Positions 1-5,862 of a stretch of DNA of 5,862 bases are shown here, piece by piece. The translations under genes and the position numbers were made by a program. The notes beneath the pieces are model-generated. The model was not told where the DNA came from. It worked only from the letters and a program-made list of their open reading frames with translations, and made no database searches. Positions within the stretch are counted from its first letter, which is position 1, and each line of letters opens with the position of its first letter. The DNA lies in the IMG/VR virus record IMGVR_UViG_2671180254_000003, one strand, 5' to 3'. Source of the stretch: a virus. Taxonomy: Duplodnaviria > Heunggongvirae > Uroviricota > Caudoviricetes.

Positions 1-117
1 TAGCTCCTTCTGATGCCATTCTATTTCAGGAAGGAGTGTCCGTTAAACTCAGGCTACCTCAGGTTATTCGCTTCTGGGCATGGGCGGATCAACAAATGAT
101 AGACGGTAATGCAGATT

Positions 118-136
118 GTAACGCTCGCGGCGTTAC
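118..136. repeat. Palindrome GTAACGC-tcgcg-GCGTTAC inside the replication gene; candidate initiator-binding site (ori element)
   Basis: Perfect 7-bp inverted half-sites around a 5-nt spacer. The same half-site recurs at 327-345 and 361-367. Confidence 0.3.
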
Positions 137-326
137 AAAAAGTGCAATAGATCGCATCACTTTTATGTCTGGTTTTGCTGATGCGTTAATTCAGGTTGGA
201 TGGCTGGTCGAAAATGACGGAGGGCTTTCTCTACCTAACTTTGAACGTCATAACGGAAAAAGCTCTAAAAAAAACGGGCGGTTACAAACGAGCGAGTAAC
301 AAAAATACGCGAACTGAAACGAAAAG

Positions 327-345
327 GTAACGCTGCCAGCGTTAC
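327..345. repeat. Palindrome GTAACGCTG-c-CAGCGTTAC; candidate ori/iteron element within the replication gene
   Basis: Perfect 9-bp inverted repeat with 1-nt spacer. Followed by another GCGTTAC half-site (361-367), a (GAGGAA)x3 repeat (371-388) and two GATC sites (389-392, 401-404). Preceded by an A-rich stretch (300-325). Confidence 0.35.
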
Positions 346-744
346 ACAAACGGATCAAAAAGCGTTACCAGAGGAAGAGGAAGAGGAAGATCTAAATACT
401 GATCTCCCCCTCGCCAAAAACGAGCGTCTAAAAAATTCGAGCCGGAGGCTATTGAGCTGCCCGATTGGTTGCCGGAAACACTCTGGCATGAGTGGGTCCG
501 GTTCAGACAGGCATTGCGAAAACCGATTCGAACGGAGCAGGGCGCTAACGGGGCGATACGGGAACTGGAAAAATTCCGTCAGCAGGGTTTTACACCTGAG
601 CAGGTGATTCGACACAGCATCGCCAATGAATACCAGGGCCTGTTCGCGCCGAAAGGTGTTCGGCCTGAGACGTTGCTCCGACAGGTTAACACCGTCTCGT
701 TGCCGGACAGTGCGATCCCGCCAGGCTTCAGGGGGTAACGGACC

Positions 745-1491
745 ATGAAAAATATTGCGACAGGCGGCGTTCTGGAACGCATCCGCCGACTGACCCCGCC
801 ACATGTAACCGCCCCATTCAGAACGGTAGCGGAGTGGCGCGAGTGGCAACTTGCTGAAGGCCAGAAACGTAGCGAGGAGATCAACCGCCTGAATCGCCAG
901 TTGCGGGTGGAAAAAATTCTGAATCGCTCAGGCATCCAGCCGTTGCACCGTAAATGCTCGTTTGCGAATTACCAGGTGCAGAACGACGGCCAGCGATACG
1001 CGTTAAGCCAGGCGAAATCCATCGCCGATGAACTGATGACCGGGTGTACAAATTTTGCGTTCAGCGGAAAACCTGGTACCGGGAAGAATCACTTAGCGGC
1101 AGCTATCGGGAATCGCCTGCTGAAAGACGGTCAGACAGTGATTGTGGTTACCGTGGCTGATGTTATGAGCGCCCTGCACGCCAGCTATGACGACGGGCAG
1201 TCAGGCGAAAAATTTTTGCGGGAGCTGTGCGAAGTGGATCTGCTGGTTCTTGATGAAATTGGCATTCAGCGCGAGACGAAAAACGAGCAGGTGGTGCTGC
1301 ACCAGATTGTTGATCGCCGGACAGCGTCGATGCGCAGCGTGGGGATGCTGACAAACCTGAACTATGAGGTGATGAAAACATTGCTCGGCGAGCGGGTGAT
1401 GGATCGCATGGTCATGAACGGCGGGCGCTGGGTGAATTTTAACTGGGAGAGCTGGCGTCCGAATGTTAGCCATTCGAGGGTTGTTAAGTAG
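745..1491 (+). CDS. DnaC-like replicative helicase loader (prophage YdaV-like AAA+ ATPase)
   Basis: 248-aa ORF with Walker A motif GKPGTGKNH, Walker B-like LLVLDEIG and DnaC-like overall architecture. ATG 745 lies 6 nt after the upstream stop with a G-rich RBS (AGGGGG 730-735). Confidence 0.9.
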   Translation: MKNIATGGVLERIRRLTPPHVTAPFRTVAEWREWQLAEGQKRSEEINRLNRQLRVEKILNRSGIQPLHRKCSFANYQVQNDGQRYALSQAKSIADELMTGCTNFAFSGKPGTGKNHLAAAIGNRLLKDGQTVIVVTVADVMSALHASYDDGQSGEKFLRELCEVDLLVLDEIGIQRETKNEQVVLHQIVDRRTASMRSVGMLTNLNYEVMKTLLGERVMDRMVMNGGRWVNFNWESWRPNVSHSRVVK

Positions 1492-1505
1492 TTTCAGGAG
1501 GATTT

Positions 1506-1928
1506 ATGGCGAAACCTTTTACTCCCGAACAGCGGGAAGAACTGAAGACGCGAATTGTGGAACTCGTGCATCAGGACGGTCGGGTCACGATTCGGCAGTT
1601 GTCAGATGAAACAGGTATCAGTCGTGCGTCTGTCGGTCGCTTATGCATAGAACTGGTCGCAAGTGGTGATGTATATAATTCTGGCTACGGCTTATTCCCG
1701 TCTGAACAGGCTCGCAAGGACTGGCAAAGCGCCCGCAAAAAACTCTCGAGAGTAAAGGTGAGGAAACCGGTTGTTGTTGATCCGGACCTTATCTGGTCAT
1801 TACCTGACGGAGAAATACGCCGCTACGACAGGCGCCTGAATATAATCTGTCGCGAGTGCCGGAAGAGCGAAGCTATGCAGCGTGTACTGGCTTTCTATCA
1901 GGGTAATTTTCAGGAGGCGATACTGTGA
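1506..1928 (+). CDS. Winged-helix/HTH DNA-binding protein (prophage, DUF977-like; family uncertain)
   Basis: 140-aa ORF with strong SD CAGGAGG (1495-1501) 4 nt before ATG 1506. HTH-like segment VTIRQLSDETGISRASVGRLCIELVASGDV. Stop TGA 1926-1928. Confidence 0.75.
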   Translation: MAKPFTPEQREELKTRIVELVHQDGRVTIRQLSDETGISRASVGRLCIELVASGDVYNSGYGLFPSEQARKDWQSARKKLSRVKVRKPVVVDPDLIWSLPDGEIRRYDRRLNIICRECRKSEAMQRVLAFYQGNFQEAIL

Positions 1929-1985
1929 ATGAAATTAGCTATCAGGCTTCAATTACCGCTGGCATTCGCATCAAAGGAGAGGAGC

Positions 1986-2342
1986 ATGGAAATAAAACCA
2001 GAAGATGAGTTAAGCAATATCGTTTTATTTCCGGTAAAAGAGGATGACCCTCGTAATCAGGTTAATTTTCTTTATGAGCCATCGGAAAGACCATATTGCC
2101 ATCACGCCTCTGTACGGGTTGACGAAAAAGAGCGTCAGGTCCGCTGTAAAATCTGCGGTGCGGTTGTGGAGCCGTTTGACTGGATGCTCTCTGTGGCAAA
2201 AAGAGAAACCAGACTGGCAGATGATGTAAGGCTATTGCGCCAGGAGGAACAGGAAAGGCGGAGAAATATAGAAAAGCTGATACAGATTGAGCGTAACGCG
2301 AAAGCGCGGATACGCAGGGCGACAAAATCCAGAACTGAATAA
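1986..2342 (+). CDS. Zinc-ribbon protein with basic coiled-coil-like C-terminus (hypothetical phage protein)
   Basis: ATG 1986 preceded by AGGAG (1975-1979, 6-nt spacing). Contains CHH...x13...CKIC putative Zn-binding motif. An alternative in-frame ATG at 1929 (137-aa version) abuts the upstream TGA and has SD AGGAGG at 1912-1917 with a long 11-nt spacer. Confidence 0.6.
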   Translation: MEIKPEDELSNIVLFPVKEDDPRNQVNFLYEPSERPYCHHASVRVDEKERQVRCKICGAVVEPFDWMLSVAKRETRLADDVRLLRQEEQERRRNIEKLIQIERNAKARIRRATKSRTE

Positions 2343-2489
2343 TTAAATTTAGCACTGTTAAAAATTTAATCCTTAACCGGAGGGATTTCTGCACCCTCAA
2401 ATCATCAGGAGACCACCCGAAAGGGCGGGGAGCAGTCACACATCTGTTTCCGATAGCCCCGTTCTAATGCTACACTCTTTGATATTTTT

Positions 2490-3176
2490 ATGACCCCAAT
2501 AAACATATTTATGACAGTTGCTGATTTCAAACGGCCCAAATTGGAGCTCCCAAACGGGGCAAACAAACTACTACTGCACTCTTGCTGTGCTCCATGTTCC
2601 GGTGAGGTGATGGAGGCGCTTCAGGCCTCGGGAATCGACTACACCATCTTTTTCTACAACCCGAACATTCATCCTCAGAAAGAGTATTTAATTCGTAAGG
2701 ATGAGAATATTCGCTTTGCTGAACAACACGGCGTGCCGTTTATTGATGCTGATTACGACACAGACAACTGGTTTGAACGAGCCAAAGGAATGGAATGGGA
2801 GCCCGAACGAGGGATCCGTTGCACCATGTGTTTTGACATGCGTTTTGAGCGGACAGCGCTGTACGCCGCTGAAAATGGTTTCAGTGTGATCAGCAGTTCA
2901 CTGGGCATTTCACGCTGGAAAAATATGCAGCAGGTTAACGACTGTGGGCGGCGAGCCGTCGCGCATTATCCGGGCATGGTGTACTGGGATTATAACTGGC
3001 GCAAGCAGGGCGGCTCGTCCCGTATGATTGAAATCAGCAAGCGCGAAAAATTCTATCAGCAGGAATATTGTGGCTGTGTGTATTCTCTGCGCGATACCAA
3101 TCTACACCGCAAATCTCAGGGACGCCCTCTTATCAAAATTGGTCAACTCCACTACGGTAAAGAAGAGAAGGAGTGA
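2490..3176 (+). CDS. queH: QueH-like epoxyqueuosine reductase family protein (DUF208, Fe-S enzyme)
   Basis: 228-aa ORF with the DUF208/QueH hallmark motifs as recalled from memory: [45 protein letters not shown]. Start could be ATG 2490 or 2511; neither has a clear SD. Confidence 0.8.
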
Positions 3177-3197
3177 TTTTATGGGGCACCTTTCTGA

Positions 3198-3227
3198 TTG
3201 ATTTCATATTGGCGAGGTAAGTAGAAT
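3198..3227 (+). promoter_or_regulatory. Putative sigma70 promoter for hok-type transcript copy 1 (-35 TTGATT, 18-nt spacer, -10 TAGAAT)
   Basis: TTGATT 3198-3203 and TAGAAT 3222-3227 place a transcription start near 3234, the start of the tac-like sequence CTGCGGGTGCTTGAGG. Confidence 0.35.
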
Positions 3228-3321
3228 GACTGCGGGTGCTTGAGGCTATCTGCTTCAGGCATGAACACCAAAAGGCAGATAGAGAAAAGCCCCAGTTAAC
3301 ATTACGCGTCCGGCAAGACGC
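3211..3321 (+). promoter_or_regulatory. hok-type mRNA 5' leader, copy 1 (tac-like element plus conserved stem-loop); downstream body lost in assembly gap
   Basis: About 90 nt closely similar to 5355..5460 (CTGCGGGTGCTTGAGGCT...AGAGAAAAGCCCCAGTTAACATTACGCGTCC.GCAAGACGC). Contains stem CTATCTGC/GCAGATAG (3246-3253 / 3275-3282). Runs directly into the N run. Confidence 0.6.
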
Positions 3322-3574
3322 NNNNNNNNNNNNNNNNNNNNNNNNNNNNNNNNNNNNNNNNNNNNNNNNNNNNNNNNNNNNNNNNNNNNNNNNNNNNNNN
3401 NNNNNNNNNNNNNNNNNNNNNNNNNNNNNNNNNNNNNNNNNNNNNNNNNNNNNNNNNNNNNNNNNNNNNNNNNNNNNNNNNNNNNNNNNNNNNNNNNNNN
3501 NNNNNNNNNNNNNNNNNNNNNNNNNNNNNNNNNNNNNNNNNNNNNNNNNNNNNNNNNNNNNNNNNNNNNNNNNN
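3322..3574. other. Assembly gap (253 N)
   Basis: Uninterrupted run of N. ORFs 3236..3577 and 3255..3701 in the track are artefacts of translating N. Confidence 0.99.
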
Positions 3575-3694
3575 TAATTTTTGTCTGGATAATCGGAAAA
3601 ATAATTGAGCCAGTTATTGAATTGTATAACGACGTGGTATGGGCGTCATTCAACACACTGCACAATAAAATTAATCCGTATAAGGAAAGCTGAT

Positions 3695-4060
3695 ATGGCA
3701 CTGACGAAAAAACAACGTGCAGAACTGCGCATGAAGTTCGGTGGTCGCTGCGCTTATTGCGGCTGCGAACTTGGCGAAAAGTGGCATGCAGACCATGTAA
3801 AACCGGTCATTCGTTTTGATGGAAATATGCTTCACCAGGAACGTGACGATATATCCAACATGGTACCAGCATGCCACCCATGCAATCTGCACAAGCATTG
3901 CAGTAGCCTGGAAGATTATCGACGAATTATCAGTGATGGTCGTCGTGAATTCCTTGCGTCCGGGAAAGGCAAAGCGCTGGTTCGTATGGGATTGGTTGAA
4001 ATGAAATCTGACCCGGTTGTGTTCTGGTTTGAAAAATATCAAGAAGGGGCTACGGCATGA
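3695..4060 (+). CDS. HNH endonuclease
   Basis: 121-aa ORF from ATG 3695 with SD AAGGA (3682-3686). HNH motifs CAYCGCEL, WHADHVKPV, VPACHPCNLHK. The track's longer version starts at TTG 3605 with no RBS. Confidence 0.85.
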   Translation: MALTKKQRAELRMKFGGRCAYCGCELGEKWHADHVKPVIRFDGNMLHQERDDISNMVPACHPCNLHKHCSSLEDYRRIISDGRREFLASGKGKALVRMGLVEMKSDPVVFWFEKYQEGATA

Positions 4061-4722
4061 CCACTATTACCAAAGAGCGACTGCAATGGCTGGCTAACAT
4101 TTCTGGCCGCGATGATATTGACGATATAGACGGCGGTGAAATTCGTGAACTGGCGCTTATCGCTCTGGCATCACTGGAAGCAGAGCCTGTAGCGGAATGC
4201 ATTGTTGAAGATGGGGGCATGTGTATTGACGGGTTCGGTGAGTATGTGGGTCACTCGCTGCCTGATGGAATGCATGAGCTTTATGCTGCCCCGCGAATGC
4301 GACAACCTGATGGATGGAAAGCCGTAGCTGTAGCGTGGAAGGTGACGTTTACTCAAGTTGACCAGGAATCTAATACGTTCACTGCTATATATTTTGACAA
4401 AGCGGAAGTTGAGTGTTGGGTACGACTGCATAAAGCATGTGATTTTCGGGCAGATATAACACCGCTTTACGCAGCGCCGGCAGTGCCGGTTGCAGTAAAC
4501 GACGACATGGCTTACGCATTCCATCACGCACTGTCAGATTCATCGCTTGGCTCTGATGAAATCGAAGAAATTAAAACCGGTTTGCGTGCTGCCTTTGCCA
4601 ACGTCACTATCCAACCAGAGCCGATAGTGCCGGATGAAATCGGGCCAAACGATAGTAATACGTTTGATTATGTTGATGGCTGGAACGCCTGCCGCGCTGC
4701 CATGCTTAAGGGAGATAAATAA
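4057..4722 (+). CDS. Hypothetical phage protein (221 aa) with two LYAAP motifs
   Basis: ATG 4057 overlaps the HNH stop (ATGA), indicating translational coupling. Acidic N-terminus; LYAAP at codons 75-79 and again about 60 residues later (nt 4279-4293 and 4465-4479), encoded with different codons. Confidence 0.8.
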   Translation: MTTITKERLQWLANISGRDDIDDIDGGEIRELALIALASLEAEPVAECIVEDGGMCIDGFGEYVGHSLPDGMHELYAAPRMRQPDGWKAVAVAWKVTFTQVDQESNTFTAIYFDKAEVECWVRLHKACDFRADITPLYAAPAVPVAVNDDMAYAFHHALSDSSLGSDEIEEIKTGLRAAFANVTIQPEPIVPDEIGPNDSNTFDYVDGWNACRAAMLKGDK

Positions 4723-5087
4723 TGATTAATCGAACCAAACTGGAGCACATTCTCGAATATGCCAGGCAGCAGAAATGTATTGGGCAACTTTGTAAAATTC
4801 CACCAGGAGATATGGTTGAAATCGTGGAAATGGCCATGCGTAAGGCTGGCAACTCTCCGGTAGCTCCGGCTGGCTGGATAAGCTGTAGTGATGCAGTTCC
4901 TGCTGAATATTGCGATGTGATTCTTCTCGATGATCTCGGGAATGTATTCCCCGGTTCCTGGGATAAGGTTTTTTGCCCCACTCGTGGCGGGAATAAGATG
5001 GCTTTTGTGGACAAAGACGGCGTTGAAGTAGAGAGCTCAACTCACTGGATGCCGCTACCGGAACCACCGCAGGAGGTGAATCAATGA
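4722..5087 (+). CDS. DUF551-family prophage protein
   Basis: 121-aa ORF; start overlaps the upstream stop (TAATG) with SD GGGAG upstream. C-terminal WISCSDAVPAEYCDV...STHWMPLPEPP matches the DUF551 pattern. Confidence 0.85.
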   Translation: MINRTKLEHILEYARQQKCIGQLCKIPPGDMVEIVEMAMRKAGNSPVAPAGWISCSDAVPAEYCDVILLDDLGNVFPGSWDKVFCPTRGGNKMAFVDKDGVEVESSTHWMPLPEPPQEVNQ

Positions 5088-5167
5088 CCTGGCCTGAGGC
5101 ATTCACCACGGTAGGAATTGCGATGGCGGTGGCGCTGGTGGTGTATTCGATTTGCCGTTGGGGTTAA
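5084..5167 (+). CDS. Small hydrophobic peptide (27 aa, MTWPEAFTTVGIAMAVALVVYSICRWG), predicted single transmembrane helix
   Basis: Not in the ORF track (too short). ATG 5084 overlaps the DUF551 stop (ATGA) and is preceded by a strong SD AGGAGG (5071-5076, 7-nt spacing). Stop TAA 5165-5167 is followed within about 10 nt by an intrinsic terminator. Confidence 0.55.
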   Translation: MTWPEAFTTVGIAMAVALVVYSICRWG

Positions 5168-5172
5168 CAAAC

Positions 5173-5203
5173 AAAAACCCCGGATTGATGGTCCGGGGTT
5201 TTT
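5173..5203 (+). terminator. Rho-independent terminator (possibly bidirectional)
   Basis: A5 (5173-5177), stem CCCCGGA (5178-5184) / TCCGGGG (5192-5198) with 7-nt loop, then T5 (5199-5203). Confidence 0.8.
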
Positions 5204-5354
5204 GAAGGAAACAAAACAGAAACAGCAATTGCCGTTACCTGTTGTTACCATGGCAAGTAAACGTATCTCAGGCGAGCGCATTGCGCCGTTCTGACGCAGA
5301 TAAACTAGCCTGGATAGATGGTGCTGGCAATAAAAAATAGCGTTTTCTTATCGG

Positions 5355-5484
5355 TGTCGGTAAGATTGCTGCGGGTGCTTGAGGCTGTCTGCCTCGGGTA
5401 TGTCACTGTAAGGCAGACAGAGAAAAGCCCCAGTTAACATTACGCGTCCTGCAAGACGCTTAACATTAATCTGAGGCCCAATCT
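5355..5484 (+). promoter_or_regulatory. hok-type mRNA 5' leader, copy 2 (putative -10 TAAGAT at 5361-5366, tac-like element 5369-5386, stem-loop 5385-5420, mok upstream region)
   Basis: tac-like CTGCGGGTGCTTGAGG is complementary to the 3' fbi-like sequence at 5749-5764. Stem CTGTCTGCC/GGCAGACAG (5385-5393 / 5412-5420). Leads into the mok/hok reading frame. Confidence 0.7.
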
Positions 5485-5697
5485 ATGTCTCACAAATGTA
5501 GGTTAGCCTCTTACGTGCCGAAAGGCAAGGAGAAGCAGGCTATGAAGCAGCAAAAGGCGATGTTAATCGCCCTGATCGTCATCTGTTTAACCGTCATTGT
5601 GACGGCACTGGTAACGAGGAAAGACCTCTGCGAGGTACGAATCCGAATCGGCCAGACGGAGGTCGCTGTTTTCGTAGACTACGAATCTAGAGAGTAA
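5485..5697 (+). CDS. mok: Mok-like regulatory reading frame (70 aa), in frame with and containing hok
   Basis: ATG 5485 opens the only frame open across the hok start. Length matches chromosomal Mok-type frames (recalled from MokC, which is an N-terminally extended HokC). Whether it is translated is inferred. Confidence 0.5.
   Translation: MSHKCRLASYVPKGKEKQAMKQQKAMLIALIVICLTVIVTALVTRKDLCEVRIRIGQTEVAVFVDYESRE
5542..5697 (+). CDS. hok: Hok/Gef-family type I toxin (HokD/RelF-like small membrane protein, 51 aa)
   Basis: MKQQKAMLIALIVICLTVIVTALVTRKDLCEVRIRIGQTEVAVFVDYESRE shows the Hok family signature (TM helix, LTRK.LCE.R...EVA.F..YES). SD AAGGAG sits 8 nt upstream of ATG 5542. Confidence 0.9.
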   Translation: MKQQKAMLIALIVICLTVIVTALVTRKDLCEVRIRIGQTEVAVFVDYESRE

Positions 5698-5704
5698 GAG
5701 TGAC

Positions 5705-5728
5705 CAGGCGGGAGAGTAATCTCCCGCC
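5705..5728 (+). other. Stable hairpin just after the hok stop (GGCGGGAGA-GTAA-TCTCCCGCC)
   Basis: Perfect 9-bp GC-rich stem with GNRA-type tetraloop; no immediate U-run. Probably a 3' UTR structural element of the hok mRNA. Confidence 0.5.
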
Positions 5729-5743
5729 ACCTTTGATGTGTCA

Positions 5744-5765
5744 GGCATCCTCAACGCACCCGCAC
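5744..5765 (+). promoter_or_regulatory. fbi-like (fold-back inhibition) element complementary to the 5' tac-like element
   Basis: CCTCAACGCACCCGCA (5749-5764) pairs with TGCGGGTGC-TTGAGG (5370-5384): 9 bp plus 6 bp around a single bulge. This is the 5'-3' pairing architecture of hok mRNAs. Confidence 0.6.
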
Positions 5766-5770
5766 TTAAC

Positions 5771-5789
5771 CCGTTTCGGCGGTTTTTTT
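5771..5789 (+). terminator. Possible 3' end of hok transcript (short GC stem plus T7 run)
   Basis: CCG-tttc-GGCGG followed by TTTTTTT (5783-5789). Stem is weak; the IS1 end abuts immediately. Confidence 0.3.
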
Positions 5790-5862
5790 GGTAATGACTC
5801 CAACTTATTGATAGTGTTTTATGTTCAGATAATGCCCGATGACTTTGTCATGCAGCTCCACC
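5790..5862 (-). mobile_element. IS1 insertion sequence, terminal 73 nt including inverted repeat; element continues beyond window end
   Basis: GGTAATGACTCCAACTTATTGATAGTGTTTTATGTTCAGATAATGCCCGATGACTTTGTCATGCAGCTCCACC matches the IS1 terminus as recalled. The minus strand encodes the InsB C-terminus. Confidence 0.9.
5805..5862 (-). CDS. insB: IS1 transposase InsB, 3' end (partial, continues beyond window)
   Basis: Minus-strand translation gives ...VELHDKVIGHYLNIKHYQ followed by stop (TAA, complement of 5805-5807). Confidence 0.8.
   Translation of the reverse strand, partial: VELHDKVIGHYLNIKHYQ

Follow-up and report, generated by a model that had tools for sequence, protein, structure and literature searches.

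An IS600 insertion and two small indels in a ydaU-like replication-initiator gene of a Shigella sonnei prophage remnant

Background

Among the closest described counterparts of the replication module analysed here is the YdaU-YdaV pair of the Rac prophage of Escherichia coli K-12, with which it shares the order of a cro-like gene, ydaT, the initiator gene, the DnaC-like gene ydaV and a DUF977 gene. The record MN652886 ('Escherichia phage Rac') holds an ortholog of the initiator with 96% identity that is annotated as ydaU; other phage homologues carry the annotations replication protein, primosomal protein I and protein O. The module nevertheless differs from that of Rac in that the N-terminal ~135 residues of the initiator are unrelated to the DUF1376-type YdaU, and in that the copy described below is almost certainly a pseudogene with three lesions.

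Phage lambda likewise possesses a two-domain initiator, O, whose gene is followed by a helicase-loader gene, P, and the origin of lambda lies with its repeats inside the O gene. Clustered palindromic repeats and a stretch of lower GC content inside the gene studied here, a candidate origin, are reminiscent of lambda ori, and the 'replication protein O' of phages mEpX1 and N7 shows 42% identity at C-terminal residues ~150-235. In contrast to the O/P pair, the loader is DnaC-like and not P-like, and the N-terminal domain of the initiator belongs to a different family. A third parallel is offered by dnaT and dnaC, neighbouring genes of E. coli whose order is mirrored by a DnaC homologue placed directly after a DnaT-like C-terminal domain. 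Only this C-terminal domain is held in common with E. coli DnaT, and the gene under study is a phage gene, not a gene of the host primosome.

The inactivation of genes in Shigella by the expansion of insertion sequences (IS1, IS2, IS4, IS600 and IS911) provides the fourth comparison, the pattern found here being the same, with IS600 inserted in a coding sequence, a duplication of 3 bp and further inactivating lesions. Expansion of IS600 and pseudogenes bearing both an IS and other lesions have been documented in S. sonnei (PMC7373316). Most conserved pseudogenes are reported to have no lesion other than the IS (PMC7373316), whereas the small indels appear to be older than the IS in the present case.

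The DNA analysed is a stretch of 5,862 nucleotides from a tailed-phage record (IMGVR_UViG_2671180254_000003), hereafter referred to as the window. An original prediction, made from the letters of the window, read positions 1-738 as a replication-initiator gene disrupted by two homopolymer frameshifts and attributed these either to a defective prophage or to errors made at homopolymers in the sequencing of a draft assembly. The gene, its lesions, their recurrence in other genomes and the probable function of the intact protein are described below.

Methods

Related loci were obtained by an exact-protein look-up with YdaV and with the 87-residue open reading frame (ORF) at the start of the window, which gave 20 loci from ~19 assemblies, including chromosomes of 4.8-5.0 Mb. 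Reading frames were followed by three-frame translation in combination with nucleotide alignment to the intact 789-nt orthologs. The window starts inside IS600, and the left junction of the element and the 5' fragment of the gene are therefore visible in the related loci only. A search of 5426 complete E. coli genomes was performed with megablast, using window positions 230-470, 236-306 and 372-442 as queries.

Results and discussion

The IS600 end and truncation of the gene

The first 61 nucleotides of the window are IS600 sequence, and the remnant of the initiator gene is confined to positions 62-738 (Table 1). Positions 1-60 gave no alignment to the ydaU-like gene when compared with the intact 789-nt orthologs at the nucleotide level. 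In a sensitive search, positions 1-78/95 matched sequence adjoining IS3-family transposase genes or their remnants, and one such adjoining gene, annotated 'IS3-like element IS600 family transposase', has its start codon 3 nt past the end of the match. The remainder of the element lies beyond the start of the window. A complete copy is present in locus L016, where it measures 1264 bp and has the TG...CA termini (TGAGGT...ACCTCA) of IS600 (~1.26 kb, IS3 family, imperfect terminal inverted repeats). It shares 99.76% identity with the element of locus L005, which PGAP annotates as 'IS3-like element IS600 family transposase, programmed frameshift', and the IS600 transposase genes in the fetched loci have Pfam matches to HTH_Tnp_1 and rve.

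The insertion site can be read directly from L016, in which the left flank ...GGGAAGGT is followed by the element (TGAGG...CCTCA) and then by the right flank GGTTATTCGC; across the same site the uninterrupted gene reads GGGAAGGTTATTCGC. The trinucleotide GGT flanks the element on both sides in L016, and its right-hand copy alone is seen in the window. The site corresponds to nt 105-107 of the 789-nt gene, at codon 35/36, so that the first 35 codons are cut off and the first 104 nt of the gene are missing from the remnant in the window. The apparent N-terminal 'APSDAILFQEGVSVKLRLPQ' is an in-frame translation of IS sequence. The original prediction, in treating positions 1-61 as coding sequence of the gene, had thus mistaken an IS600 terminus for its 5' part and overlooked the insertion.

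A simple left junction between IS600 and ydaU is missing in five loci (L009, L017, L021, L024 and L025). The element is preceded by other IS or by late genes, and not by the 5' part of ydaU, in L009 and L017, and by a Rac-type ydaU (DUF1376) with a truncated ydaV in the draft assemblies L021, L024 and L025. These odd flanks stem either from rearrangement mediated by IS600 or from assembly errors across copies of IS elements.

Table 1. Features of the replication-initiator region of the window (positions of the window; a dot marks features given without strand)
Feature	Position	Strand	Basis
IS600 (IS3-family) terminal 61 nt, end upstream of orfA	1-61	-	100% identity to S. sonnei IS600 ends
GGT, right-hand copy of 3-bp target-site duplication (ydaU nt 105-107)	62-64	+	Flanks in L016
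Remnant of ydaU-like replication-initiator gene, nt 105-789 of 789-nt/262-aa gene, with +2 and -10 indels	62-738	+	Ortholog alignment
19-bp perfect palindrome GTAACGC-N5-GCGTTAC, candidate initiator-binding site	118-136	.	Sequence, putative
A8 tract, A6 in intact orthologs (+2); first frameshift, frame 3 to 2	267-274	+	Ortholog alignment
Premature TAA met by the entering frame past the A8 shift, ending the 87-aa ORF	297-299	+	ORF list, translation
Second 19-bp perfect palindrome GTAACGC-N5-GCGTTAC, candidate intragenic origin element	327-345	.	Sequence, putative
Further half-site of the palindrome	362-368	.	Sequence
(GAGGAA)3 hexamer microsatellite, poly-Glu, in-frame	371-388	+	Copy number varies between strains
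Surviving TCCCCCT copy, one 10-bp unit (TCCCCCTAAA) deleted; second frameshift, frame 2 to 1	405-411	+	Alignment
Residual 89-aa ORF, DnaT/O-like C-terminal domain of the former initiator	469-738	+	ORF list, PDB 2ru8 match
TGA stop of the middle frame beyond the 10-bp deletion	605-607	+	ORF list, translation
Intact ydaV, DnaC-like helicase loader, 248 aa	745-1491	+	NF009043, PF01695

Two indels and the homologous frame path

The intact ortholog is a single ORF of 789 nt encoding 262 residues in loci L001-L003 and L007. In three annotated records it lies directly upstream of ydaV, under the name 'phage replication initiator YdaU family protein' in one of them, and the intact protein falls in a cluster of 1716 members that holds other proteins as well. 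Comparison with intact ydaU-like orthologs, which the original prediction had named beforehand as a check, provided an uninterrupted reference against which the lesions of the window could be placed.

Exactly two indels separate the remnant from these orthologs. The homologous sequence runs in frame 3 (63 to ~274), passes to frame 2 (~275-404) and continues in frame 1 (405-738), and the listed ORFs of the 1-1491 region are accordingly 36-299 (87 aa), 469-738 (89 aa) and the intact 745-1491 (248 aa). At the first lesion two adenines have been added to a tract of six; at the second, the ortholog sequence TCCCCCTAAATCCCCCT is reduced to TCCCCCT by the loss of 10 nt, which make up a single unit of a directly repeated tandem sequence. 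The window and the orthologs do not differ in the A5 and A6 runs (416-435). Since the second lesion is the loss of a 10-bp unit and these runs are unaltered, only the first is a homopolymer change. The two places of frame change that had been predicted, the A8 tract and a cluster at 406-435, agree with the translation and the alignment. The description of both as homopolymer frameshifts was half right, being correct for the expansion from A6 to A8 and incorrect for the repeat loss, which lies at 405-411.

When both indels were reverted in silico, the resulting 685 nt differed by one synonymous base from L001 and L007 and encoded residues 36-262, identical to those of the two intact orthologs. 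Near-identity of this order shows that the frame pattern is not one of chance ORFs, and a single synonymous difference with an identical protein after reversion indicates that the pseudogene is very young.

Recurrence across genomes and assemblies

The IS junction, the A8 tract and the 10-bp deletion occur together in 17 of the 20 fetched loci. Two further loci lack the IS and carry the deletion, with A8 in L008 and with A9 in L011 (accession HE616528, which we take to be S. sonnei 53G), and the gene is intact in the sole remaining locus, L007. Every S. sonnei-type allele among the fetched loci thus carries the 10-bp deletion. The presence of the same A8 and deletion in the 17 IS-bearing loci, and of the deletion with A8 or A9 in the two IS-free ones, bears out the earlier suggestion of an inactivated initiator in a defective prophage.

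Seven loci, all of other assemblies, match positions 1-3321 of the window at 100.000% identity, five of the seven being from chromosomal records of 4.8-4.9 Mb, and several complete S. sonnei chromosomes match this part at 100%. The 87-residue ORF, which requires both the IS junction and A8, was found on 492 public contigs as 'putative bacteriophage protein [Shigella sonnei]'. An exact scan of the genome_contigs collection gave no match to the IS/ydaU junction, so that this collection does not include the source genome.

Neither A8 nor the 10-bp deletion was detected by megablast in any of the 5426 complete E. coli genomes. As S. sonnei genomes share both indels, this absence speaks against a widespread E. 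coli allele and not against the reality of the indels. At least 80% of window positions 1-1500 is covered in 680 of the complete E. coli genomes; the best matches listed among these all begin at window position 61, with a subject that is 8 nt longer over the span.

The A-tract is polymorphic, with A6 in intact E. coli genes, A8 in most S. sonnei and an in-frame A9 with an extra Lys. A9 is carried by 53G, by a partial S. sonnei protein (P0002) and by an intact S. dysenteriae protein of 261 residues (P0028). Given the difference between A8 and the A9 of 53G, homopolymer miscalling may have occurred in some individual assemblies.

Probable order of the lesions

The distribution of the alleles across the fetched loci suggests that the 10-bp deletion, common to all S. 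sonnei-type alleles, came first, that expansion of the A-tract followed and that IS600 arrived last, in a sublineage. The deletion removes one copy of a tandem repeat and is consistent with replication slippage, and the change from A6 to A8 (A9 in 53G) would have arisen by slipped-strand expansion. The 1264-bp IS600 would later have transposed into codon 35/36 with duplication of GGT, in the sublineage that includes the window. The full-length initiator protein can no longer be produced from such a gene.

Predicted function of the intact initiator and YdaV

The intact ortholog matches phrog_2509, 'replication initiation protein', with an E-value of 1.2e-89 over residues 1-262 (profile positions 1-277 of 277), and the copy in the window is a sequence of this type spread over three frames, minus its first 35 codons. 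The C-terminal part of the intact ortholog is additionally matched by phrog_6451 ('primosomal protein') and phrog_678 ('O-like'). No Pfam family, DUF1376 (PF07120) included, was detected in the intact ortholog at E<=1, and NCBIfam models gave only a match to the DnaT C-terminal domain that lies below threshold (16 bits against a cutoff of 201).

The two halves of the protein have different affinities. Over residues 139-262, its last 124, it shares 81% identity with the C-terminus of the Rac DUF1376-type YdaU encoded in L021, while its N-terminal ~135 residues are unrelated to that YdaU. Residues 170-262 (93 aa) match the C-terminal domain of E. coli DnaT (PDB 2ru8, E-value 9.5e-5; also 9zbt), the shared features including the terminal motif VNTVS-PDS-IPPGFRG. 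On these sequence relationships, the intact protein is best read as a modular lambdoid initiator whose N-terminal domain is variable and whose C-terminal domain is DnaT/O-like. The N-terminal domain presumably binds the origin, and the C-terminal domain, related to DnaT and lambda O, may work with the adjacent DnaC-like loader YdaV. The labels 'replication initiator' and 'ydaU-like' given in the original prediction appear reasonable, drawing as they do on homology and annotation. A literature search on the replication function of ydaU and ydaV found no paper.

The downstream DnaC-like gene is intact, as had been predicted: YdaV matches NF009043 over its full length with 510 bits (cutoff 389) and PF01695 with an E-value of 1.1e-19. 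Against the DnaC model NF005931 it scores 306 bits, under the cutoff of 357 bits. The identical YdaV protein is indexed in 5731 blocks.

Alternative explanations

Some of the fragments might still be functional, for example if the 89-residue C-terminal ORF were expressed together with YdaV as a domesticated two-part module. The perfectly intact and widely conserved ydaV would fit such a role, as would the extent of the ORF, which spans the whole DnaT-like domain and which some annotations list as a gene. Its sole start codon is, however, TTG, and the flanking ydaT and DUF1367 genes are decaying too. As the pseudogene is so young, with one synonymous change, the intactness of its neighbour requires no selection, and we consider residual function very unlikely.

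Errors of sequencing or assembly at homopolymers in a draft, with a gene that is really intact, had been offered in the original prediction as one of two explanations. The window does resemble a draft scaffold, beginning in IS600, ending in IS1 and containing a run of 253 N between them, and one lesion lies in an A-run whose length (A8 or A9) depends on the assembly. Yet a 10-bp deletion and a 1264-bp IS insertion are not homopolymer miscalls, and the lesions recur across independent complete genomes, in the seven identical loci from other assemblies and, for the A8-dependent ORF, on the 492 contigs. Miscalling is thus ruled out as the explanation of the frame changes, and the chance that the gene is really intact is extremely small.

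Hardly more credible is a contingency switch in which the A-tract and the hexamer repeat toggle the expression of the initiator by phase variation. Variation of the kind expected is seen, the tract being A6, A8 or A9 and (GAGGAA)n ranging from 2 to 8 copies across strains, but changes in the hexamer copy number are always in-frame, and the irreversible 10-bp deletion is present in every S. sonnei-type allele, with the IS in most. No length of the A-tract could therefore restore the protein, and none of the 20 loci was a S. sonnei strain in which a change of the A-tract alone had restored a single ORF. The variation is explained by neutral drift of microsatellites in or near a dead gene.

Programmed recoding at A8, by ribosomal frameshifting or by the transcriptional slippage that is possible at runs of at least eight A in enterobacteria, a length which this tract does reach, has next to no likelihood, as the orthologs have A6 in one open frame with no conserved slippery tract or overlapping frames, slippage at A8 would leave the downstream -10 frameshift unrepaired, and the gene has lost its start codon, its first 35 codons and its promoter-proximal context to the IS600 insertion.

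Repeats and a candidate intragenic origin

The copy number of the hexamer array (GAGGAA)n is 3, 4, 6, 7 or 8 in the S. sonnei loci and ranges from 2 to 5 in the intact proteins of E. coli, Escherichia and S. dysenteriae (EEEE to E10), and the array is a possible VNTR typing marker. The six plus-strand rotations of GAGGAA are absent from the main text of two published Shigella MLVA papers.

The heptamer GCGTTAC, which forms the arms of the two perfect palindromes and the further half-site, occurs 5 times in 118-368, against 0.55 occurrences expected for the whole window. The palindromes sit within and flank a lower-GC, A-rich stretch (GC 0.40-0.47, against 0.53-0.63 downstream). The A-tract, (GAGGAA)n and the 10-bp tandem unit all lie in this low-GC, repeat-rich linker, beside the second palindrome and the half-site. 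If the region were an intragenic origin, the clustering of slippage-prone repeats would be explained. It is conceivable, although rather doubtful, that the linker is the intragenic origin of the phage family, similar to lambda ori and hence a hot spot of slippage, that the hexamer, with its 3-8 copies, is an undescribed high-resolution VNTR marker in S. sonnei, and that the intact origin and loader might be used in trans by a superinfecting relative.

Structure of the window and of the prophage remnant

The S. sonnei prophage is a remnant scrambled by insertion sequences. Gene maps show inverted late genes, with the lysis genes lying inverted upstream, and several inserted IS elements; a further copy of IS600 cuts the DUF1367 gene short, and the integrase is reduced to a fragment beside modC. 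The ydaT gene, directly upstream of the initiator, is frameshifted too: each of the three S. sonnei loci that were checked (L016, 8157-8580; L008; L011) has lost 1 nt at nt 39 of this gene.

The window itself is an IS-bounded draft scaffold, with IS600 at 1-61 and IS1 at its end, as is typical of short-read contigs; its last 75 nt (5788-5862) match the end of an IS1 copy without a difference. An N-run at 3322-3574 (253 N) joins two S. sonnei prophage remnants. Positions 1-3321 represent the locus beside modABC, and positions 3575-5862 are matched at 100% identity by another locus, which in the complete genome CP104423 is separated from the first by ~1.1 Mb (~3.08 Mb against ~1.98 Mb). The run of N looks like a scaffold gap or a chimeric join rather than masked contiguous sequence. 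A gene for QueH (epoxyqueuosine reductase) at 2490-3176 is prophage cargo. The second half of the window contains a hok/gef-type toxin ORF (5485-5697), and positions 5363-5773 share 90.7% identity with the hok region located after QueH in the first locus.

Conclusion

Positions 62-738 of the window are almost certainly a young pseudogene, with three independent lesions, of the replication-initiator gene of a lambdoid, Rac-type prophage in the S. sonnei chromosome. As a combination of an IS600 insertion with small indels it follows the usual Shigella pattern of genome decay, and features of this kind are already known. The edges of contigs should be checked for IS termini before they are read as coding sequence. 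The hexamer array, the A-tract, the candidate origin palindromes and the placement of a DnaT-like domain beside a DnaC-like gene may be of modest value for strain typing and for the study of phage replication modules. For S. sonnei, the apparent frameshifts are true, lineage-fixed mutations of a decaying prophage that is in all probability unable to drive its own replication.
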